A DNA stretch of 64,000 nucleotides. Source: Thermoplasmata archaeon (GTDB taxonomy: Archaea > Thermoplasmatota > Thermoplasmata > Thermoplasmatales > Thermoplasmataceae). The notes beneath the pieces were generated by a model. The model was not told where the DNA came from, searched no databases, and was given only the letters and a program-made list of their open reading frames with translations. Positions 2,422-29,463 of the stretch are shown here, in pieces. How positions within the stretch are numbered: the first letter of the stretch is position 1; every line of letters starts with the position of its first letter. The position numbers were made by a program, and so were the translations under genes. The DNA lies in contig JAKADL010000001.1 in NCBI GenBank assembly GCA_021820565.1, positions 2,786 through 66,785 of the forward strand. Reading direction: 5' to 3'.

Positions 2422-3534
2422 TCAAATATGGAACCATGATTTTTTGACGGGTTCTCCACGCAATTCTTCGATGAGTTCTTTTTCCTTTGATGATAAGTGT
2501 TTAGGTACCTGGAGCTTTAAAACCACAAGGAGGTCGCCATTTCCGTGAGATGTTAGCTTAGGCATTCCTGCCCCTTTCACTCTCAAAACATCGTCGGGCT
2601 GGCTTCCTGATGGAATAGTCAAATTAAATTTTTCCCTGAATAATGGTATCTCTACCGTCCCTCCGAGTGCAGCAGTCGGAAAATCTATGGATTCTTTAAC
2701 ATATAAATTATCGCCTGTACGCCTGACATTTGGATTCTGCTGTACATATACAACAGCATATAAATCTCCCGTAACGCCGCCGAATGAGTTCCCAAGTTTC
2801 TGCGTTCTGAGTCTCGTATTTGTATCAACACCTTTGGGTATAGTAATCGATATGTTTTCCATTTTAGGGATATATCCCTTTCCACCACATACCTTACATG
2901 GCGTTTTCGGTATTTTGCCCCTTCCATTACATGTACGGCATACAACAACCTGAACAAAATTAAAGAAACCCTGTCCCCGGGATATTCTCTCCTTTCCGGT
3001 ACCATGACATGTTGGACAGGTAATAAGTATGCCTCCTTCGGCTCCTGAACCATTACAGGCCTGACACATTGCATTCCGCTTAAATTTAATGGGTTTAGAT
3101 GCACCGTAATATGCATCTTCCAGCGTTATATTGACCTTTATATATATATCCAGATCGGGCTGTGTATCGTAACCACCGTAGAATCCTCCTGAATTGCCAC
3201 CGCTGAATCCACCTCCCCCGAATATTTTACTGAAGATATCGTTGATATCGTCAAAATGGGAAAAGTCTTCCCAGTTAAAGTTTGACCCTGTTGAGCCACC
3301 GCCGTCACCGAACGAAGTGGAACCTGTTGCATCATACTGCTGCCTCTTCTGTGGATCTGAAAGTACCTCGTATGCTTCCGCTACTTCCTTGAATTTCTGT
3401 TCAGCTTCCTTACTTCCTGCATTTACATCAGGATGGTATTTCTTTGCCAGTTCTCTGAATTTTGCCCTGATTTCATCCTGCGAGGCATTTTTGTCCACAC
3501 CGAGGACACTATAGTAATCTGTTGCCATTTCCAC
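2422..3534 (-). CDS. dnaJ: Molecular chaperone DnaJ
   Basis: J-domain with HPD (KKYHPDVN), a G/F-rich linker, and four CxxCxGxG zinc-finger repeats ([32 protein letters not shown]). Confidence 0.95.
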
Positions 3535-21419: not shown

Positions 21420-22184
21420 ATGTTTCTGCCTCCAAAAATCAGTAGAATTGAAACGAAAAATATGGAAATAGGTAGAAGAAGGTATATCAGGGAAATAGTT
21501 GAAAATGCCCTTTTATTTTTTAAATTTATCACAAATAAAAAAATTTATATTACCAGGATATGGTATATTGGAAATATTGCAAAAAAACCCATTCCTGCGC
21601 TCAATAGGATTGATGATAATGGTAAAACAAAATGGAATGTTTTTTATTATCAGGTTATAAATCGTTATTCCAGAATACTGTACAGTAATAAGCACAGGAA
21701 TACAGTGAAAAAAACATCCAGATTTATGGGACTTATATCACGTAATAAAAAAAGAATTCATATGGCAACTGACTTTTTGATGCCTGCAATAATTAAATCA
21801 TTTCCATTGATGTTTGAAATTTCAATGAAATATTACGAGAATTTCTCATCAGACATGGATTTTGCAACGTTTTTCACAAGAAAATTAGGAGAGACAAATA
21901 TAGACCAGGATACATGTAGCCGGTTTTTCATAGAAATAATAGGCTCGGTTGAACCCAATGCTTCATGGATAAGAAAAATGAGATCATTATCACATGAACT
22001 CTATGGGGACTCATTATTATATATGGAAAATTTTGCTATTTATATAGCATACACAATATATAGAAAATGCGAGAATAATATATCAACGACGATCACGACC
22101 ATGTACAAAAATTCACCCTCCGGTATGTGCAGGATATTAATGGAAAATGCCAAAAATATAGAAGATTATTTACCGGGCAAGTAG
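21420..22184 (+). CDS. Hypothetical protein (ORFan-like)
   Basis: 254-aa ORF, very AT-rich, with a basic N-terminal half. No motif recognised. Sits between two unrelated operons. Confidence 0.35.
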   Translation: MFLPPKISRIETKNMEIGRRRYIREIVENALLFFKFITNKKIYITRIWYIGNIAKKPIPALNRIDDNGKTKWNVFYYQVINRYSRILYSNKHRNTVKKTSRFMGLISRNKKRIHMATDFLMPAIIKSFPLMFEISMKYYENFSSDMDFATFFTRKLGETNIDQDTCSRFFIEIIGSVEPNASWIRKMRSLSHELYGDSLLYMENFAIYIAYTIYRKCENNISTTITTMYKNSPSGMCRILMENAKNIEDYLPGK

Positions 22185-22191
22185 GGCTTTA

Positions 22192-23265
22192 TTAATCGTT
22201 GTTGAGATCACTGGACAGTAATTTAAGTGAATCAGATACAACATCAATTGCTTTATAAAAATCGCTGATGTCTATGACTTCATTCTGTGTATGGGAAAGC
22301 CTTGTATCTCCAGGTCCATAGGTTATAACCGGTATATGCCAGAAGTTCCCGAGAGTATTCATATCTCCCGATCCACTCTTGAATATGAGTTTCGGCGACA
22401 TGCCATTTTTCTTTATTGCCTCTTTGAAAGATTGCACAATAGGGCTTTTTATGTCCGATATATATGGCTCCGTTCTGTTTTCAATGTTATAGGAATAGTT
22501 TTTTATAAGTATATTTTCCATATCAGATTTTATTTCATTGACAATCTCATTTTCTGATATTGATTTGGGATATCTCAGATCAATGTACATGGAGGCATAT
22601 TCCGGGGTCATATTATCATATTCACCGCCAGTAAATTTGGTGATGCCCGCAGTTACTGAATTAAAATCCTTATTTTTCCCGTATTTAGATCTTATGGAAA
22701 ACCAGAGATCCATGAGTGAATCAATAGCATTTGTTTCCATCCATGATGAACTGGCGTGATGTGTTTCAGTTTTCTTATCGACCTTTAACAATATTCTGCC
22801 CTTGTATCCTGCGGTTATGTTCATGGCACCTCCAGGTTCACCGAATATAGCATAATCATAACCATGATAGTCTTCCATTATTTTATTAATGCCCTTACTG
22901 TCACTCTCCTCGCCTGATGCCGCAGATATGAGCAATTTGCCTCTGAAACCACTGTCAAGGGCTTTTTTTGCACCAAGAATCAATGCCAGCAGTGATGATT
23001 TGGCATCCACAGCACCTCTGCCATATATGAGGTTTCCCTCCCTCTTTACGGGAAGAATCCCTGGAACTGTGTCCTCATGCCCGCATATGAATACCGATGG
23101 CTTTCCCGTGCCGTTTACGGATATTACATTTAGCTGTTCATCTATTACGGGATCATGAAAGCCAAGATCGACCATGTAATCACGGATCAATTTAGCGATT
23201 TCACCTTCATCCCCGCTCGGTGAATAAGTATTCAGCATTTCTAGCAGCATATCCTCCGGATTCAT
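22192..23265 (-). CDS. lysK: [LysW]-lysine/ornithine hydrolase (M20 deacylase, ArgE/LysK)
   Basis: 357 aa M20 peptidase with motifs GHEDTV and GRGAVDAKSS. Last gene of the LysW operon, with a 4-nt overlap with lysX. Confidence 0.8.
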   Translation of the reverse strand: MNPEDMLLEMLNTYSPSGDEGEIAKLIRDYMVDLGFHDPVIDEQLNVISVNGTGKPSVFICGHEDTVPGILPVKREGNLIYGRGAVDAKSSLLALILGAKKALDSGFRGKLLISAASGEESDSKGINKIMEDYHGYDYAIFGEPGGAMNITAGYKGRILLKVDKKTETHHASSSWMETNAIDSLMDLWFSIRSKYGKNKDFNSVTAGITKFTGGEYDNMTPEYASMYIDLRYPKSISENEIVNEIKSDMENILIKNYSYNIENRTEPYISDIKSPIVQSFKEAIKKNGMSPKLIFKSGSGDMNTLGNFWHIPVITYGPGDTRLSHTQNEVIDISDFYKAIDVVSDSLKLLSSDLNND

Positions 23266-24110
23266 TTTTTGGCCTCTGAAATAAGGTATTCTGAAATATA
23301 GTCAGGTATGTTGATCCCTGTTACCGGAACTGTATTCTTGAATTCTGTGTTCCCATTGACCTCATTGACAAAAAATCCATCCTTTGATTCCAGGATGTCT
23401 ATTCCGTAGATACCTGAACCCAGCGCTTTATGAATCTTTTCCACAATATCCTCTATTTCTGAGGTAATTTTCAGTGGCTCAGCTCTACCCCCCAGGGCAG
23501 TATTTGTACGCCAGTCCTCCCCTGATCTATACCGGTAAATTCCTGCCACAGCACGGTCATCTACAAGGAATACCCGTAAATCACGGTTGAAATCATTGAT
23601 ATATTCCTGCGTATAATTTACCTGGTATATAGGATACATATATTCTTTATATTCCGAGACGTCCATTGCCGCATAATAATCGTTCAGAAGAGAAATCATC
23701 CTACCCCAGCTACCTGTAACAGGTTTGGTTACAGCCCTTCCGTTGAAATCTGTTTTAAAAGATTCCAGAAATTTTTCAGTTGAAAACGAAACGAAAGTCT
23801 TCGGAATTCTAATTCCCTGATGTGCTAGCAGAGTTGAGGTAAACATTTTGTTCCCGGTAATAATAGTAGAGTTAAAATCATTAAGTATTCTGTGGCCTGT
23901 AAATTCTACATATGCAGTAGAATGTACATTTCTATAATATCCGGTGCTCCTCTGCAATGATATGTCACCGAAGTCATAATTTGCCTTTTCCAGATTAAGG
24001 TTCATATCCTTTACATTGAGCAATTGCACATCGATATTTTTATCCTGCATGGATTTCAGGATTGCCTTTTCCTCCCAGCGCATAATATCCAGCAACATAG
24101 TAATTTTCAC
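23262..24110 (-). CDS. lysX: RimK-type ATP-grasp ligase, LysX/ArgX (amino-acid--LysW ligase)
   Basis: 282 aa with ATP-grasp organisation and the typical N-terminus ...DIMRWEEKAILKS. 4-nt overlaps on both sides. Confidence 0.8.
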   Translation of the reverse strand: MKITMLLDIMRWEEKAILKSMQDKNIDVQLLNVKDMNLNLEKANYDFGDISLQRSTGYYRNVHSTAYVEFTGHRILNDFNSTIITGNKMFTSTLLAHQGIRIPKTFVSFSTEKFLESFKTDFNGRAVTKPVTGSWGRMISLLNDYYAAMDVSEYKEYMYPIYQVNYTQEYINDFNRDLRVFLVDDRAVAGIYRYRSGEDWRTNTALGGRAEPLKITSEIEDIVEKIHKALGSGIYGIDILESKDGFFVNEVNGNTEFKNTVPVTGINIPDYISEYLISEAKK

Positions 24111-25288
24111 GGTAAAACACCTTTCTCCGCGGATAGTATTACTTCAGACATGATGGCGGCGGCATCTTTAAGTTCTGAATCTGATATGACGTATGGAGGA
24201 AGCATCCTGATTATATTTATACCTGAATATAATGGAAGCACGCCTCTATTGATCATTTCCATCAATACCGGCAGGAATTTTATTCTTAGTTCAATTGCAT
24301 CCATCAAACCGAGGCCCCTTACTTCTTTGACTATTCTGGCATCCTCTATACCGGATCGTAATTCGTTTCTGAAAAGTTCTCCCTTTCTGGCAACACTTTC
24401 AATCATACCTCTGTCCAGCTGTTTGATTACTGCACTTCCCGCAGCCATTGCCAGAGGATTGCCACCGGTTGTAGAAGACTGCTCTCCTTTTGCCAGGTTA
24501 TCCATAAATTCAGGTTTTCCGGCAGTTATAGACAGTGGCATTCCACCACCGATACCCTTTCCTATTGTTATGATATCTGGTTTAATCCCGAAATTCTCAT
24601 GTGCCCACATCTTTCCTGTTCTTCCAAGACCTGACTGTATCTCGTCAGCAACAAGTATGATATTATTTTTTTCCGTTATATTTCTCAATTCTTTTACATA
24701 TTCCCTGGAGGGTATGTTTATTCCACCCTCACCCTGTACCGGTTCAAAAAATACCGCGGCTATGTCGGGGTCTTTCTCCAGTATATTTAAAGCTTCCATA
24801 TTGTTATATTCTATGAATTCAACGTTTTTCATCAGGAGTGAACCAAATGCCTTCCTGTATTTCTCGGAATAGGTAATTGAGAGTGCCCCGGCAGTTTTCC
24901 CATGGTACGAATTTGTCATAGCAATGATTTTGTGCTTTTTGGAAGATTTTATTACTGTTTTTATGGCTGCTTCCACGGCTTCTGCACCTATATTACCCAG
25001 ATAAAATTTATCCAGTCCGGATGGTACAATACCCGTAAGGTCCTTTATGAATTCTTCTCTGGCAGGTGTGTATTCAGATGCATGGGCTATTGATATGGTA
25101 TCAAATTGCTTGCACACGGCCTCTTTTATCTGAGTATTGCCGTAACCGAGAATGGCCACTCCATAACCGCCCATCATATCTATATAACGTTTGCCGTTAA
25201 TATCATGAAGTATGGCACCGCTGCCATTCAGGATATTAACGGGCAATCTCTGGTATGTATTTGCTATATGATCATTTTCATAATTCAT
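24107..25288 (-). CDS. lysJ: Class-III PLP aminotransferase, LysJ/ArgD type
   Basis: 393 aa with DEIQSGLGRTGKMWA and the PLP-Lys context TIGKGIGGG. Its ATG overlaps the stop of the upstream iscB-like ORF (ATGA). Confidence 0.9.
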   Translation of the reverse strand: MNYENDHIANTYQRLPVNILNGSGAILHDINGKRYIDMMGGYGVAILGYGNTQIKEAVCKQFDTISIAHASEYTPAREEFIKDLTGIVPSGLDKFYLGNIGAEAVEAAIKTVIKSSKKHKIIAMTNSYHGKTAGALSITYSEKYRKAFGSLLMKNVEFIEYNNMEALNILEKDPDIAAVFFEPVQGEGGINIPSREYVKELRNITEKNNIILVADEIQSGLGRTGKMWAHENFGIKPDIITIGKGIGGGMPLSITAGKPEFMDNLAKGEQSSTTGGNPLAMAAGSAVIKQLDRGMIESVARKGELFRNELRSGIEDARIVKEVRGLGLMDAIELRIKFLPVLMEMINRGVLPLYSGINIIRMLPPYVISDSELKDAAAIMSEVILSAEKGVLP

Positions 25289-26526
25289 CTAACCACCCCA
25301 GAGGAGACCCCATCCATAAGGGTGGGGAGAAATCTGAACTTAAACTGCAATCCCTTTCCATATCTGACCATTTTAACTTTCTTTATATTTACATCCATTT
25401 TCTTATCACCATCTCTTATAACTACTCTCTTTCCATAATTATGAACCCCAGAAACATTCCATATGCTGTTATTATACTCTACAATATCACCGGGTTGCAT
25501 ACTGTATCTCTTTCTCCTTATGGAAGGCCTGAATCCTTTCCTGTTGAGCTGGGGGGTTCTGTTGTTCCGTCTTCTCTGGGATACGCCATACACTGGTGAT
25601 CTCACCTGTTTATTTCCACCAGCAATGACAAATGCATCATTTGCATGGCTCTTATCAATGCCATATAATATTCTGTTCTTCTTTGTCATATATCCGAAGC
25701 TATAATCTGCACCTGTTAGTTCTTTTAATTTCCATCTCACTGTATTCATAAATGCTGAATCCTTCAATGTATTCGATGCTTCATTTCTAACTTCTGGATG
25801 ACCAAATTCTTCAGCTGTGAGATTATTCTTCTTCTGGTTGCAGGAATGGCATGCTATTGCAAGATTATCAACTGTATTGCTTCCTCCCCTTGATTTTGGT
25901 GTTATATGCTCTATTTCAAGTGGTACATTCTCTTTTCCACAGTATGCACATTTCCTTTGGAATTTCTCTAATAAGTATTCCCTTATTTTGTATCCCATAA
26001 GCTCTCCATGCTGGTATTCTACCCCTGATATTTCAGGGTTCTTCATCTTATGGGTATCAAAGGAAGCTACCTCTATAACAACTCTGGATACAGGAATGAT
26101 ACTCTTTATTTTCTCTATTAGCCTTATATGTGTTTCCAGTTTATGATTAATACTCGGTGCAAACCATTCCCCTCCCTTTCTTCCCCTGTTAAGGAATCTT
26201 GGCTTTCTGTACCATAATTTATTTCTTCTTTTTCCACGGTACATGGACTTTTCGATATTTAGTTTCGGCATATCGATTCTTGCTGTTACTTCACCAAATA
26301 GAAGTTCTCTTTGAGCTGTTACGGCAGAGAATCCTATATGCTTATATCCTGAATCTATTCCCAGGATTACATCCTGAGTGTCACTCTCACACTGCCACAG
26401 TAGCTGAATAGTAAAAGGAGAATGCTGTACTATCTTCGCTTTATGTTCCTTTAAGAGATGCTTTGCCTTTGCAGGTTTGCAAGGCATTAATGGTTTTCCA
26501 TCCATGTTTAAAATAAATACCTGCAT
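25285..26526 (-). CDS. iscB: IscB-type RNA-guided nuclease (PLMP domain, split RuvC with inserted HNH, C-terminal TAM-interaction-like domain)
   Basis: Numbering follows the 477-aa track ORF. PLMP domain MQVFILNMDGKPLMPC at aa 65-80. RuvC-I GIDSG (D122). Arg-rich bridge helix YRGKRRNKLWYRKPRFLNRGR. RuvC-II VVIEVASFD (E216). HNH CAYCG...EIEHITPKSRGG...DNLAIACHSCN. RuvC-III SHANDAFVIAG (H358, D361). I place the start at M65 (ATG 26526..26524) because IscB proteins begin at the PLMP domain. An in-frame ATG at 26718 is the alternative start. Confidence 0.8.
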   Translation of the reverse strand: MQVFILNMDGKPLMPCKPAKAKHLLKEHKAKIVQHSPFTIQLLWQCESDTQDVILGIDSGYKHIGFSAVTAQRELLFGEVTARIDMPKLNIEKSMYRGKRRNKLWYRKPRFLNRGRKGGEWFAPSINHKLETHIRLIEKIKSIIPVSRVVIEVASFDTHKMKNPEISGVEYQHGELMGYKIREYLLEKFQRKCAYCGKENVPLEIEHITPKSRGGSNTVDNLAIACHSCNQKKNNLTAEEFGHPEVRNEASNTLKDSAFMNTVRWKLKELTGADYSFGYMTKKNRILYGIDKSHANDAFVIAGGNKQVRSPVYGVSQRRRNNRTPQLNRKGFRPSIRRKRYSMQPGDIVEYNNSIWNVSGVHNYGKRVVIRDGDKKMDVNIKKVKMVRYGKGLQFKFRFLPTLMDGVSSGVVR

Positions 26527-26800
26527 AACGGCTTTAAGCCCCCCTGCAGGTTGGGGTAAGTCCACATCGGGGTTGTTGGAAAGGGTTTTTAAATTCGGCA
26601 CACTGAGAGTTTCCTCTCTGTTTAATGACGAATCGCAGTTGCCCCAGACTTGTGGAGCATCTGTGGGCGTGTATGTATTTCTCCTTTCTAATTTCTGTTT
26701 ATTTTTTATGTTTGACATATCATTTAAACCCCCTAATCAACCAGTTGCCCTCAAACCTCACGGTTCGAGCCCCTTCCTTCCGGGAGGGGTGATTGACTAT
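25289..26800 (-). mobile_element. Putative non-autonomous IS200/IS605-superfamily (ISC-type) element carrying iscB plus omega RNA, without tnpA. Ends not defined.
   Basis: The iscB gene interrupts an otherwise canonical lysZ-lysJ junction. G/C-rich imperfect palindromes lie at both flanks (26750-26789 and 25291-25330). No TnpA/Y1 transposase ORF anywhere in the window. Confidence 0.4.
26527..26800 (-). ncRNA. Candidate omega RNA scaffold of the IscB element (boundaries approximate)
   Basis: Sits immediately 5' of iscB on the same strand and is visibly G/C-richer than its surroundings. Contains stacked hairpins, several with tetraloops: minus-strand CTCGAACC-GTGA-GGTTTGAG (26750-26769), CCCCTCCC-GGAA-GGAAGGGG (26770-26789), GAGAG-GAAA-CTCTC (26605-26618) and CCCC(AA)CC-TGCA-GGGGGG (26539-26556). 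A long-range helix pairs GGCAACTG with CAGT(G)TGCC (26636-26643 with 26597-26605). Confidence 0.45.
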
Positions 26801-27551
26801 AAATCACAGTTCCATTTTCCATATTCTGGAATGGGCTGGAAATTGTTACCTGTTTTACGCCCATCTCCAGGGCTTCTATGGAAGCCATTAGTTTTTTGTC
26901 CATTCCTGTTCCTATATATTTCAGAATGCTCCTTATATATGCAGTATCTGCCCGCTCAATTATCTTATCTTCATAGTAAAGCCCGTTTACATTGGTCAGG
27001 AACGTCAATGTGTCAGCTTTTATTGAACCTGCAACATAGGCTGCAGCCCTGTCAGCATCGACATTAAGATAACTGTCAGTGCCGTATGCTATTGGCGAGA
27101 TTACAGGAATATATCCTGCTTCCATTAAATTTCTGGTTGGAACCGGGTCTGCCGAATCTACTCTTCCTGTGTATCCACCGTCAATTACCATCTTTCTATT
27201 GTTTTCATTTAAAATTATCAATTTTTCTTTTCTCCTGGCCTTCATAATGCCATTAAGTGTAACCGCCTTTATACCATGCTGGAGGAGATTGAGAACTATC
27301 TTCTGGTTGATCAGGTTCATTACCATTGTGAATATTTCCAGTGTACCTTTATCGGTATACCTGCTTCGTATTCCGTCCGGTGATGTAACAAATCTTGGAT
27401 GGTAATTAAAAGAGTCTGCATGGCTATCAAGATAGTTGCCGCCACCGTGTACTATGGCAACTGGTTCATTCAATCCTTCAATAATGGTATAAAGATTGTC
27501 ATTTTCCAGGAATTTTTCCAGTATACTTCCACCTATTTTTATTACTTTCAT
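26751..27551 (-). CDS. lysZ: Amino-acid kinase, LysZ/ArgB type ([LysW]-aminoadipate / acetylglutamate kinase)
   Basis: 266 aa with KIGGS at the N-terminus and the VHGGG motif. The last ~15 codons (SQSPLPEGRGSNREV) are encoded by the hairpin region assigned to the IscB element. Confidence 0.85.
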   Translation of the reverse strand: MKVIKIGGSILEKFLENDNLYTIIEGLNEPVAIVHGGGNYLDSHADSFNYHPRFVTSPDGIRSRYTDKGTLEIFTMVMNLINQKIVLNLLQHGIKAVTLNGIMKARRKEKLIILNENNRKMVIDGGYTGRVDSADPVPTRNLMEAGYIPVISPIAYGTDSYLNVDADRAAAYVAGSIKADTLTFLTNVNGLYYEDKIIERADTAYIRSILKYIGTGMDKKLMASIEALEMGVKQVTISSPFQNMENGTVIYSQSPLPEGRGSNREV

Positions 27552-27554
27552 AGT

Positions 27555-28622
27555 TCACACCGGGAATAAAGATGGGGCCATCAATGACTCGTATTCCGGG
27601 AAACCGTTCATGATATTCATGGATTGAACAGCATTTCCGGCAGCGCCTTTTATAAGATTGTCAATGGCTCCAAAGGAGACAATCCTTTTGACATATTTAT
27701 CAATAGCAAATCCAACGTCGATAAAGTTTGATCCGACAACTGTCTTGGGGTCAGGATATTTATAATTGCTTTTCCTGTCCATTATAAGCCTTACAAATCT
27801 CTCATTACCATAGAATTTTTTCAGCAATCCCCAGAGATAAATTTCCTCCTGTTCTGCATATATGCTTGAGGTTGTTAAGATACCCCTGACCATATTTACG
27901 GAATGTGCAGAAAGAGCGATTTTTACCTTTTTGCCGGAGGCATATTCCAGTTCCTGTTCGATCTCAGGGGTATGCCTGTGACCGAACGGTTTATATGCCC
28001 TTACAGACCCGAATCTTTCCGAGAATACCTTTGATTCATCCAGCCCAGATCCTGATCCTGAAGATCCGACTTTTGCATCCACATTTATGATATTACTGGT
28101 AATATCCAGTGAAAGGAAAGGTGCAATGCTATAAATGGATGAAGAGGCAATACACCCCGGTGTTGCTATGTACCTGGCATTTTTTATCTCTTCCCTGTGG
28201 AGCTCCGGCATCCCGTAAACAAATTTTTTGATTAAGTCCGGATATTTATGTTCATATCCGTACCATTGCCTGTACAGAGTATGATCTTTCAATCTGAAAT
28301 CTGCGCTCATATCTATAATTTTTACACCGGTTTCAACAAGTTCGGGAACATACTTGACAGAAGTACCGTGAGGAAGCGCAAGGAATATTAAATCTACCCT
28401 TCCTGCCATATCAAGCGGTGAAATAGCTTCAAATTTTAAATCCGTTAATCCGTAAAGGTCTGGATGCACTCTTGAAACCTTTTCTCCGGCATGACTTGTG
28501 GAGGAGACTGTCACAATTTCAACATCACTGTGACCCACAAGGAGCCTGAGCAATTCTCCCCCGACGTATCCGGATCCGCCCACAATACCTACTTTGAGCA
28601 ACTTATTCTCCCCAGTCTTCAC
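27555..28622 (-). CDS. lysY: N-acyl-gamma-glutamyl/aminoadipyl-phosphate reductase, LysY/ArgC type
   Basis: 355 aa with VGIVGGSGYVGGELLRLL and the active-site Cys context ATPGCIASS. The annotated ATG overlaps the lysW 3' end by 20 nt. Confidence 0.9.
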   Translation of the reverse strand: MKTGENKLLKVGIVGGSGYVGGELLRLLVGHSDVEIVTVSSTSHAGEKVSRVHPDLYGLTDLKFEAISPLDMAGRVDLIFLALPHGTSVKYVPELVETGVKIIDMSADFRLKDHTLYRQWYGYEHKYPDLIKKFVYGMPELHREEIKNARYIATPGCIASSSIYSIAPFLSLDITSNIINVDAKVGSSGSGSGLDESKVFSERFGSVRAYKPFGHRHTPEIEQELEYASGKKVKIALSAHSVNMVRGILTTSSIYAEQEEIYLWGLLKKFYGNERFVRLIMDRKSNYKYPDPKTVVGSNFIDVGFAIDKYVKRIVSFGAIDNLIKGAAGNAVQSMNIMNGFPEYESLMAPSLFPV

Positions 28623-28776
28623 CTACATTTTCTGCAGGTTTGATTTCTACAGTTTCTCCATTGATGGAGGATATTTCATAGCTCATTCCGCATGATCCAC
28701 ATTCAATTAACTCCCCAACCATGGAATCATCTGGCACACTGATTTTTTCTCCACATATCTTACATTTTGTTTCCAT
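28603..28776 (-). CDS. lysW: Amino-group carrier protein LysW
   Basis: Hand-translated 57-aa ORF, absent from the ORF track: METKCKICGEKISVPDDSMVGELIECGSCGMSYEISSINGETVEIKPAENVGEDWGE. It has a CxxC...CxxC zinc ribbon and the hallmark C-terminal EDWGE. GGGTGA Shine-Dalgarno lies about 8 nt upstream. First gene of the operon. Confidence 0.85.
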   Translation of the reverse strand: METKCKICGEKISVPDDSMVGELIECGSCGMSYEISSINGETVEIKPAENVGEDWGE

Positions 28777-28801
28777 TTTTATTCACCCTTTGTTGTGTTT
28801 T

Positions 28802-28845
28802 ACAAACAAATAGAAATTATTTATTACTAATAAATATTTGTTTGT
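28802..28845. promoter_or_regulatory. Inverted repeat in the lysW promoter region (candidate operator overlapping TATA-like sequence)
   Basis: Perfect 11-bp arms ACAAACAAATA (28802-28812) and TATTTGTTTGT (28835-28845) with a 22-bp AT-rich spacer, 26-69 nt upstream of the lysW ATG. Confidence 0.3.
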
Positions 28846-29091
28846 TATATTGTTATTTCTTACATTTAAAGTTTTTTTTCGAACTTAAATGCAATTATTA
28901 CTTAATTGTATTATAGTATATAAAATATACGAATATTGTATTTTTAGTATGAATTTCGTAATAATGGATTATAATACTGTACTGTATTTTATGTGCCCAG
29001 AATTCCATTACATAACAAAAATTGGTAAAATGCTTCTGAACTTTATAATTGCAAAAAATAATTAGAGATATAAAATAATCTTGATGTAAAA

Positions 29092-29463
29092 TTATTTCCT
29101 GAGATAAGAATCGGTTCCATTAATCCAGTCGGATCTGATCGGATTGAATATATCCACGTCTAATGTATCTTCCAGGGCAATCGCACTGTGCTTCACATTG
29201 GATGGAATTACCAGAACCTCTCCTTCCCCAACATCTATATCCTTGCCCTCCAGTGTTAGTCTGAGTTTTCCCTTCATAATCCATGTGACCTGCTCATTCT
29301 CATGGCTATGCTCCGGAACCACACTGCCTTTTTTTATATCCAGCTGTGCCACCATGACCCGATCCCCATAGATCATTCGCCTGACAAACGTATCTGATAA
29401 CTGTTCCCTTTTAACCTGATCCCAGCTATATTTTTTAATCTCTGCCATGCTAATACAAGCCAT
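29092..29463 (-). CDS. Cupin-domain protein
   Basis: 123 aa with cupin motifs VVPEHSHENEQVTWIMKG and VLVIPSNVKHSAIA. Confidence 0.75.
   Translation of the reverse strand: MACISMAEIKKYSWDQVKREQLSDTFVRRMIYGDRVMVAQLDIKKGSVVPEHSHENEQVTWIMKGKLRLTLEGKDIDVGEGEVLVIPSNVKHSAIALEDTLDVDIFNPIRSDWINGTDSYLRK

Follow-up and report, generated by a model that had tools for sequence, protein, structure and literature searches.

The open reading frame (ORF) between lysZ and lysJ in the 64-kb window (the whole stretch of DNA that was analysed) encodes an IscB nuclease, for which RNA-guided, TAM-dependent cleavage is predicted from its relatives. We consider it highly probable that the gene belongs to a non-autonomous ISC element of the IS200/IS605 superfamily, which carries only iscB and an omega RNA, lies inserted beside the target motif TTCAT and, as we infer, homes. 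The element is typical of a transposon family that has been described well before, and does not represent a new kind of system.

The IscB protein

Within the window the gene is divided as follows.
25285-26718, minus strand: longest iscB ORF, 477 codons, between lysZ and lysJ.
25285..26523, minus strand: IscB core ORF, 412 aa from the conserved Met at ATG 26523.
26524..26718, minus strand: N-terminal extension of the longest ORF, 65 codons, overlapping the omega RNA.

The initial annotation had assigned the full IscB architecture to this ORF and had described its catalytic residues as intact, and both assignments hold. The core consists, in order, of the PLMP domain, RuvC-I (GIDSG, with D57), the Arg-rich bridge helix, RuvC-II (IEVASFD, with E151), an HNH domain (CAYCG / EIEH / CHSCN, with C192, C195, H206, C225, C228 and N229), RuvC-III (SHANDAF, with H293 and D296) and a C-terminal, beta-rich TAM-interaction domain (TID). 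A family alignment of 33 sequences shows no variation at D57, E151, H206, N229, H293, D296 or C192/C195/C225/C228, and the catalytic residues align with D61, E193, H247, H340 and D343 of OgeuIscB, leaving the D/E/H/H/D set and the four zinc cysteines intact in the window copy.

Profile and structure searches gave the same assignment. The ORF matches Pfam RRXRR (PF14239, 6e-58, full model 1-174/174), Pfam HNH (PF01844, 5e-13) and the NCBIfam equivalog NF040563 (guided_IscB, 'RNA-guided endonuclease IscB'), the last at 359.6 bits against a curated cutoff of 175 bits. Identification as Cas9 was rejected, as the Cas9 family models scored 35 bits against a cutoff of 100 and 50 bits against a cutoff of 375. 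A phmmer search of the PDB returned TbaIscB (2.5e-43) and OgeuIscB (2.5e-36). An AlphaFold model (pLDDT 72, pTM 0.66), in which the bridge helix is of low confidence without RNA, has a beta-rich C-terminus at residues 347-394, and its best Foldseek matches are IscB-omegaRNA-DNA complexes (8csz, 5e-26, TM ~0.53).

The Pfam, PDB and NCBIfam matches all begin at residue 66-67, and the N-terminus of IscB aligns with OgeuIscB residues 4-117. In the 65-codon extension, variable sites fall on the three codon positions as 21/21/28 (59 codons), as against 182/139/376 in the core (411 codons). With no third-position bias, the extension is probably not coding, or is without coding constraint.

The window protein shares its domain order, from PLMP to TID, with OgeuIscB (7utn, 7xht, 8csz) and TbaIscB (9k30), but is only ~25-30% identical to them and is shorter than OgeuIscB (412 vs 496 aa). 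Both OgeuIscB and the window protein have a HEARO-type omega RNA; the TAM of OgeuIscB is NWRRNA, unlike the ATGAA that we assign to the window element. As in Cas9, a split RuvC domain with an inserted HNH is combined with an Arg-rich bridge helix, and a guide RNA is paired with a 3′ target-adjacent motif. Unlike Cas9, the window protein has no REC lobe and a core of only 412 aa, and no CRISPR repeat array was found in the 64-kb window.

Element ends, omega RNA and host genes

The initial annotation did not record the omega RNA, the TAM or the ends of the element. Together with the host genes, they are placed as follows.
25289..26797, minus strand (IscB orientation): non-autonomous ISC element (IS200/IS605 family), 1,509 bp.
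25284..25288, plus strand: TAM or target motif 5′-TTCAT-3′ (ATGAA on the minus strand), directly adjoining the element.
25308..25327, plus strand: left-end subterminal hairpin CCCCATCC-ATAA-GGGTGGGG, from DNA folding.
26770..26789, plus strand: right-end subterminal hairpin CCCCTTCC-TTCC-GGGAGGGG, 8 nt from the end.
26793..26797, plus strand: transposon-encoded end motif TTGAC, with two mismatches to the TAM TTCAT.
26556..26797, minus strand: omega RNA scaffold (Rfam HEARO RF02033), 102.4 bits, full model 1-211.
26798..26813, minus strand: putative guide segment 5′-GGAACTGTGATTTATA-3′, the lysZ 3′ end, outside the element.
26751..27551, minus strand: lysZ ([LysW]-aminoadipate/glutamate kinase), its 3′ end now supplied by the element.
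24107..25288, minus strand: lysJ (LysW-linked aminotransferase), start codon kept and overlapping the IscB stop (ATGA).

The lysZ-lysJ junction is empty in four relatives (L003-L006; LysZ identity 87-88%). When the flanks of the window element are rejoined without it, giving the donor joint GGAACTGTGATTTATA|ATGAATTATG, they align without gaps to these empty junctions, which therefore define an exact insertion of 1,509 bp. No target duplication is present at the lysZ-lysJ insertion. Eight related copies have the termini GTCAA...(T/G)(T/A)AG in common, which define the same ends. The top strand of the transposon is the plus strand of the window. The IscB stop TGA (25285-25287) belongs to the flank and lies outside the mobile element. 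The TAM holds both this stop (25287-25285 as read on the minus strand) and the lysJ start ATG (25288-25286), overlapping as ATGA. Since ATGAA directly follows the element at 8/8 independent sites in relatives, comparison of these sites makes ATGAA/TTCAT the likely TAM of the window IscB. Some distant IscB copies also have ATGAA or ATGA straight after the stop.

No terminal inverted repeats were found at the element ends, which instead have imperfect subterminal hairpins. The left-end hairpin lies 19 nt inside the cleavage site, within the 3′ coding region of iscB, and DNA folding recovers it in the window and in four other copies. Across these five copies its stem is altered on both arms (ATCC/GGGT, GTCC/GGGC, ATGC/GCGT), a covariation judged by eye. 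The right-end hairpin corresponds to an omega RNA stem on the opposite strand and has a stem similar to that of the left end.

The omega RNA lies directly upstream of iscB on the same strand and starts exactly where the element starts. In eight related loci the HEARO match likewise begins at the element's first base, at 90-126 bits (gathering score 83). RNAalifold predicts 66 pairs for the eight copies, 24 of them with compensatory changes. In the window copy two conserved pairs are disrupted by derived changes, and its HEARO score, 102 bits, is among the lowest of the copies examined; six of the eight related copies reach 113-126 bits. The guide would lie directly 5′ of the scaffold, and we take its length to be 16 nt, as in OgeuIscB. 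The empty sites of the relatives match this segment with 2-5 mismatches, followed by ATGAAT. On the guide side no flank motif is conserved, the flanks ending in TTTATA, GTGAAG, GATACA, TTTGA, ATCCA and TTGG, and this variability fits a role as variable guide.

The genes iscB, lysZ and lysJ are co-oriented on the minus strand, and the insertion site falls inside an 11-nt lysZ/lysJ overlap, where ATGAA is the lysJ start plus two bases. The element supplies the last 15 codons of lysZ and its stop (26751-26797), changing the native tail ...VIYNEL* (254 aa) to ...VIYSQSPLPEGRGSNREV* (266 aa), 12 residues longer. With a 15-residue substitute tail on LysZ and the lysJ ATG retained, the cost of the insertion to the host is probably small.

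The placement between lysZ and lysJ in a shared orientation stands as first described, but the initial annotation's view of it as unusual is not supported: co-orientation of IscB with the upstream gene is a published and mechanistically explained bias (Meers et al. 2023, 10.1101/2023.03.14.532601). The same study gives an experimentally determined TTCAT TAM for GstIscB and a difference of two positions between TAM and end motif. Going by published description, ISGst5 of Geobacillus stearothermophilus resembles the window element in being a non-autonomous IS200/IS605-family element with iscB and an upstream omega RNA, in having its omega RNA scaffold as the transposon right end with a guide from the flank, in its TAM 5′-TTCAT-3′ with an end motif two positions off, and in its co-orientation with the upstream host gene. 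In contrast to ISGst5, the window element has an archaeal (Thermoplasmatales) host, no IscB stop of its own, IscB ending in the TGA of the TAM, and no TnpA partner that we found. The ISC1-type elements (Kapitonov, Makarova & Koonin 2016, PMC4810608), known in bacteria and archaea and mostly non-autonomous, share the 5′ GTCA terminus, the subterminal hairpins, and insertion immediately upstream of ATGA (N|ATGA) with no target-site duplication. That paper makes no mention of Thermoplasmatales or Ferroplasma, nor of start codons or operon junctions.

Proposed homing, mobility and the present state of the copy

Related copies occupy at least seven other junctions, among them pyrD|pyrK, lysJ|lysX, Sua5|purE, a site upstream of COXG and a virus-like gene array. 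Of the 50 closest homologues, almost all come from genomes of Ferroplasma, Thermoplasmatales or Thermoplasmataceae, and many of them are already labelled 'RNA-guided endonuclease IscB' by NCBI. IscB is abundant in Ferroplasma and other Thermoplasmatales, and the earlier suggestions that such loci are rare in archaea and that this one may be undescribed both fall: archaeal ISC/IscB elements have been described since 2016 (PMC4810608), and HEARO/IscB is reported to be widespread in bacteria and archaea (PMC9755519). Scans of metagenome and viral contigs with IscB returned distant relatives only, mostly at ≤46% identity over full-length matches, and one short fragment at 78% identity; these added nothing to the placing of the element ends.

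The absence of a Y1 tnpA, as initially reported, is borne out: scans of the 64-kb window (HUH/Y motifs in six frames; Pfam on ten small ORFs) detected no TnpA, and the element is therefore non-autonomous. Nor was TnpA found within 3-10 kb of any related copy examined (~10 copies). Such absence is the norm, as only ~1.5% of iscB genes have a nearby tnpA according to published counts.

Based on work on Geobacillus and OgeuIscB, we propose the following course of events. As shown by the junctions, the element inserted without target duplication immediately beside TTCAT at the lysJ start. It would have no means of its own to start omega RNA transcription outside itself, in keeping with the published dependence of IscB elements on outside transcription, and the lys transcript would enter from lysZ. 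This transcript may yield the omega RNA, with the last ~16 nt of native lysZ as its 5′ guide, and may double as the IscB mRNA. With its omega RNA bound, IscB would then recognise an empty junction by the guide match and the TAM ATGAA and cut it, and homologous repair off an occupied copy would restore the element. New sites would be reached via a Y1 TnpA acting in trans on both subterminal hairpins, on the plus strand of the window.

The ORF of 477 codons is intact in 11/11 assemblies, and all 10 of the contigs listed with identical LysJ carry the insertion, no empty homing target being seen among them; the copy appears fixed in the species. Variable sites among the 11 assemblies number 13 nonsynonymous to 1 synonymous in the IscB core, as against 11:18 in the flanking host genes (Fisher p = 8e-4). 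Most of the IscB replacements fall at family-conserved positions, with derived alleles at positions conserved at 85-100% in various haplotypes (A29S, V152G, P163H, L175F, N295S, G330V). In the omega RNA, 10 of 242 nt vary among assemblies, pair-breaking changes included. Together this suggests that the IscB copy is under relaxed constraint, which makes its present activity uncertain. Selection for inactivation was considered and set aside as unsafe to claim, because 8/13 of the IscB replacements are GC-to-AT, in line with a mutation bias, and the counts are small.

The same data could be read as those of a fixed, decaying relic of one ancestral insertion, without homing or movement, in which IscB and omega RNA drift neutrally and the ORF is still open only for want of time. 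The 13:1 polymorphism with its derived alleles at conserved positions, the variable and partly pair-broken omega RNA, the presence of the insertion in every contig listed with identical LysJ and the lack of a nearby TnpA all point that way. However, none of the 11 assemblies has lost the open frame, and the window copy retains its catalytic residues, its zinc cysteines and a HEARO score above the gathering threshold. The derived residues F76, G97 and H172 of the window copy lie at positions that also vary in OgeuIscB; the ratio of 13:1 does not depart significantly from the neutral expectation of 3:1 (p = 0.10), the counts are small, and the consensus of a metagenome assembly may mix strains. 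On balance we regard a relic as rather unlikely, with homing by the non-autonomous ISC element as our preferred reading.

The route to new sites could also differ from the one proposed. Spread mainly without TnpA, in the manner of a homing endonuclease gene, would have IscB cut empty alleles and recombination copy the element after DNA exchange. The lack of TnpA near any of ~10 copies would be accounted for, and the empty sites in related species differ from guide plus TAM by only 2-3 mismatches, a degree of mismatch being reported as tolerated by IscB. One further copy, on the L008 contig, resembles a recombinant of two copies: its IscB is 83% identical, its left flank is glyA and its right flank lysJ, and its identity with the window reaches 100% only in the final ~50 bp of the element and in the lysJ flank. 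We had considered L008 as an orthologous insertion at lysJ and rejected this when its left flank proved to be glyA; it is treated as an assembly chimera or recombinant and not as independent evidence. Against spread by cutting and recombination, the copies sit at unrelated loci sharing only ATGAA, and a transposase-like step is needed, as homing by itself gives no access to a new site. The conserved hairpins at both ends point to recognition by TnpA, and IS200/IS605-family elements have been reported in Thermoplasmatales. We judge TnpA-free spread improbable.

The initial annotation had also allowed for domestication. An IscB retained for a host function (such as defence or control of the lys operon) and no longer mobile would fit a fixed copy co-transcribed with an essential operon and an ORF kept in all assemblies, but the window copy keeps intact transposon ends, hairpins and TAM, the insertion is absent from relatives at 87-88% LysZ identity, sister copies occupy unrelated junctions, the polymorphism is relaxed and not purifying, and the only match to the guide is the site at which the element itself is inserted. 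Domestication is thus very improbable. An error of assembly or binning, the genome being metagenome-assembled, might be suggested by the L008 contig, in which glyA is joined to the same right flank; we dismiss it, as identical lysZ/lysJ junctions are present in no fewer than 13 independent assemblies (NCBI, ENA).

Start codons at the target motif and significance

At 7/8 independent sites the downstream host gene starts with the ATG of the TAM, and in most copies the TGA of the TAM ends IscB (AG|A TGA). The sites include two different lys operon junctions in two lineages. If only non-disruptive ATGAA sites are counted, start-codon coincidence would be expected at ~20% (p ~1e-4). We speculate, with somewhat less than even confidence, that this IscB lineage occupies stop/start junctions of co-transcribed genes in the compact genomes of Thermoplasmatales. 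With the TAM doubling as host start and IscB stop, the element would borrow operon transcription for its guide RNA and ribosomes would be passed on to the host gene, with little polarity. If the pattern is general, the open IscB frame could be selected partly via the downstream host gene, besides its nuclease function.

The main value of the analysis is a correction: the locus is a textbook ISC/IscB-omega RNA element that an NCBI standard model can name. A compact IscB (412 aa) from an extreme-acidophile lineage, with clean ends, a guide position and a likely TAM, may be of interest for collections of genome-editing variants. Neither the coincidence of TAM and start codon nor the apparent decay of a fixed copy alters the current picture of IscB elements; they would add detail on how selfish elements coexist with essential operons.

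The IscB gene and its insertion into the lys operon

Gene annotation and profile searches identify a LysW-type lysine/arginine operon on the minus strand of the window. The initial annotation had proposed an IscB gene between lysZ and lysJ, which is confirmed by profile, sequence and predicted-fold matches.

Features of the operon and the element
lysW, minus strand, member of the lys operon
27555-28622, minus strand, lysY
26751-27551, minus strand, lysZ
25289-26797, minus strand, inserted element carrying iscB and its omega RNA
25285-26718, minus strand, iscB ORF of 477 codons, flanked by lysZ and lysJ
25284-25288, target-adjacent motif (TAM), TTCAT on the plus strand and ATGAA on the minus strand
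24107-25288, minus strand, lysJ
23262-24110, minus strand, lysX
22192-23265, minus strand, lysK

The ORF matches Pfam RRXRR (PF14239) end to end (6e-58), is also matched by three HNH models in the Pfam scan, and scores 359.6 bits against NCBIfam NF040563, 'RNA-guided endonuclease IscB' (cutoff 175). By sequence, its closest solved structures are TbaIscB (2.5e-43) and OgeuIscB (2.5e-36). An AlphaFold model (pLDDT 72), with a C-terminal domain rich in beta structure, is matched best in Foldseek by complexes of IscB with omega RNA and DNA (8csz, 5e-26). The catalytic residues described earlier as intact are indeed present, with GIDSG, IEVASF, EIEH and SHANDAF aligning to OgeuIscB D61, E193, H247, H340 and D343. 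All 33 sequences of a family alignment keep D57, E151, H206, N229, H293 and D296 (numbered from the conserved Met at 26523) as well as the four zinc cysteines.

Species-representative genomes were scanned with LysZ, which returned four relatives, two Thermoplasmata MAGs (87-88% LysZ identity) and two Ferroplasmaceae (70-74%). Comparison of the lysZ-lysJ junction, as the initial annotation had suggested, found an empty site in all four, where a 254-aa lysZ overlaps lysJ by 11 nt with no insert between. Removal of 25289-26797 from the window restores the junction ...GTGATTTATA|ATGAATTATG..., which aligns without gaps to each empty site, and therefore the insertion is exactly 1,509 bp, without target duplication. 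The lysZ C-terminal tail is altered from ...VIYNEL* to ...VIYSQSPLPEGRGSNREV*, the lysJ ATG is unaffected, and the TGA that ends IscB lies in the flank and overlaps that ATG (ATGA).

Near lysK, with which it is convergent, lies a 254-aa ORF (21420-22184, plus strand) with no Pfam or NCBIfam match in a region of low GC (0.28-0.33). An ORF of equal size and position occurs in L001 and in two of the empty-site relatives (L003, L004).

Element ends, related copies and target sites

On the plus strand, TTCAT precedes the left end of the element, which has a hairpin, CCCCATCC-ATAA-GGGTGGGG, 19 nt inside; among other copies the stem varies on both arms. A second hairpin, CCCCTTCC-TTCC-GGGAGGGG, lies 8 nt from the far terminus, which reads TTGAC at its end. 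This arrangement is the IS200/IS605 layout, and elements of that family have been reported in Thermoplasmatales. As noted initially, there is no tnpA in the 64-kb window, nor did we find one near any fetched IscB copy; only about 1.5% of iscB genes have a nearby tnpA (Meers et al., 10.1101/2023.03.14.532601).

Related IscB loci were retrieved via their proteins.

Locations of related IscB copies
L009, in an array of small ORFs resembling a virus or plasmid
L072, upstream of a COXG gene
L073, between pyrD and pyrK
L074, in the lys operon of Ferroplasma Type II, between lysJ and lysX
L075, between asparaginase and Fe-ADH genes
L076, upstream of an NTP-transferase gene
L077, between Sua5 and purE

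All copies start GTCAA(C/T)(C/T)A... and end ...(T/G)(T/A)AG, directly followed by ATGAA in every case, and the opposite flank has no conserved sequence, as expected for a guide. Seven of eight independent insertions place the TAM's ATG at the start codon annotated for the downstream gene, which is co-oriented, and in most of these seven the TAM's TGA is the IscB stop. The window offers 370 ATGAA sites, 10 of them at start codons and about 47-49 non-ORF-disrupting. If only sites that leave ORFs intact are considered, about 20% would be expected, and the observed 7/8 is far higher (p about 1e-4); gene-finder start calls, such as that of purE in L077, may inflate the observed count. In the window ATGAA begins lysZ, lysJ and lysK, which may explain the independent insertions in this operon in two lineages. 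The L074 insertion, a second IscB in this operon, is independent of that in the window and lies at lysJ|lysX instead.

Several copies have individual features. L008:1-2400 (ENA ERZ27237502 k141_381205) joins a glyA-adjacent copy, 88% identical in DNA to the window element and 100% over about the last 50 bp, to the window's lysJ flank; the join reflects an assembly chimera at a repeat or else genuine recombination between two copies in one population. A right-flank stretch of 12 nt, ATGAATTTTAAT, reaching 7 nt past the TAM, is common to L072 (4422-4433) and L077 (4425-4436), which are close relatives inserted at different loci (COXG, purE). Chance in AT-rich DNA could account for it, as could carried-over flank or a preference for a longer target. 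In L009:1-9437 (ENA ERZ27237460 k141_739884) the 75%-identical IscB lies among about 17 small ORFs, all in one orientation and without Pfam match; DUF929 and an RNase T-like exonuclease close the array. The contig resembles a virus or plasmid of these archaea and is a possible vehicle for the element. In L076, a Thermoplasmataceae MAG, a TPP riboswitch (2605-2706, minus strand; RF00059, 73 bits) beside an MFS/sugar-transporter gene lies just upstream of the IscB element.

The omega RNA and the IscB start

Rfam HEARO (RF02033), a family now recognized as the IscB omega RNA, matches 26556-26797 (minus strand) at 102.4 bits (gathering score 83) over the whole model, an omega RNA upstream of iscB that the initial annotation missed. 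Eight related loci also have a HEARO match (90-126 bits) starting at the element's first base. Of the 66 pairs in an RNAalifold consensus built from eight copies, 24 show compensatory changes. The omega RNA at L074:2964-3166 (Ferroplasma sp. Type II, Ga0074231_10171) has lost about 45 nt internally and scores only 90.6 bits.

The 477-codon ORF overlaps the omega RNA with its first 65 codons. This extension has no third-position bias, with variable sites by codon position of 21/21/28 (59 codons); in the IscB core they are 182/139/376 (411 codons). IscB translation probably starts at 26523, although the position is TTG, not ATG, in 5/9 aligned copies. None of the nine copies has a stop in the frame through the omega RNA (window 26524-26718, minus strand; L008, L009, L072-L077), and gene callers accordingly give an IscB of 470-478 aa; substitutions in this frame are not of coding type. 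The omega RNA's large loop has a TTTAAA box (about 26729-26734, minus strand; CTTTAAAAAC in other copies) immediately 5′ of the first ATG. Similar to an archaeal TATA box, it is a candidate internal promoter for iscB mRNA.

Constraint, proposed mechanism and distribution

Among the matches listed, the element is present in 10/10 contigs with identical LysJ. Across 11 assemblies, variable sites in the IscB core are 13 nonsynonymous and 1 synonymous, against 11 and 18 in the host flanking genes (Fisher p = 8e-4), counts that are small and come from metagenome consensus that may blend strains. Most variable core sites sit at family-conserved positions. Over the 242 nt of the omega RNA 10 sites vary, and two derived changes in the window copy disrupt conserved pairs. 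The copy in the window appears to be fixed and to have experienced relaxed constraint, which fits the usual picture of selection on transposition with drifting resident copies. The earlier suggestion that the nuclease may be active, based on its intact catalytic residues, should therefore be read with caution.

Published IscB and ISC work fits the window element point by point. In the Geobacillus element ISGst5, the TAM 5′-TTCAT-3′ serves both TnpA and IscB, the transposon right end is the omega RNA scaffold, and flanking DNA encodes the guide, so that making the omega RNA relies on transcription reading in from the flank (Meers et al., 10.1101/2023.03.14.532601). The window element likewise has a TTCAT TAM, a right-end scaffold and a guide predicted to derive from the flank. 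It also resembles the ISC elements with 5′-GTCA termini at N|ATGA described in bacteria and archaea (Kapitonov et al., PMC4810608) in its GTCA 5′ terminus and insertion before ATGA.

Sequence comparison shows the anatomy of the element, its precise insertion and the conserved TAM. For transcription, cleavage and mobilization of the element, we infer the following. As in ISGst5, omega RNA production would need transcription from the flank. The promoter region of the operon is presumably the very AT-rich stretch upstream of lysW (28600-29100, GC 0.25-0.28), which would then be the likely source of that transcription. The lys transcript would supply the guide GGAACTGTGATTTATA (26813-26798), the resulting IscB-RNA complex would cleave any unoccupied lysZ|lysJ junction bearing ATGAA, and recombination would then restore the element, while new insertions would require TnpA in trans.

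The initial annotation considered IscB rare in archaea, which is contradicted both by thousands of homologues of the window protein and by the reported wide distribution of HEARO/IscB in bacteria and archaea (PMC9755519). Almost all of the best 50 of these thousands are from Ferroplasma, Thermoplasmatales or Thermoplasmataceae; among the matches listed, Ferroplasma Type II alone has several distinct copies and many homologues are already labelled 'RNA-guided endonuclease IscB'. Nor is co-oriented placement behind a host gene unusual, as had been thought: given the strong bias of iscB genes toward the upstream gene's orientation (Meers et al., 10.1101/2023.03.14.532601), it is the expected situation. 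There is no CRISPR array in the window. The window IscB is an ordinary representative of the ISC/IscB-omega RNA elements, a known IS200/IS605 family, in the genomic setting expected for it; the start-codon niche and the decay signal merit a systematic survey, and would refine the current model without changing it.
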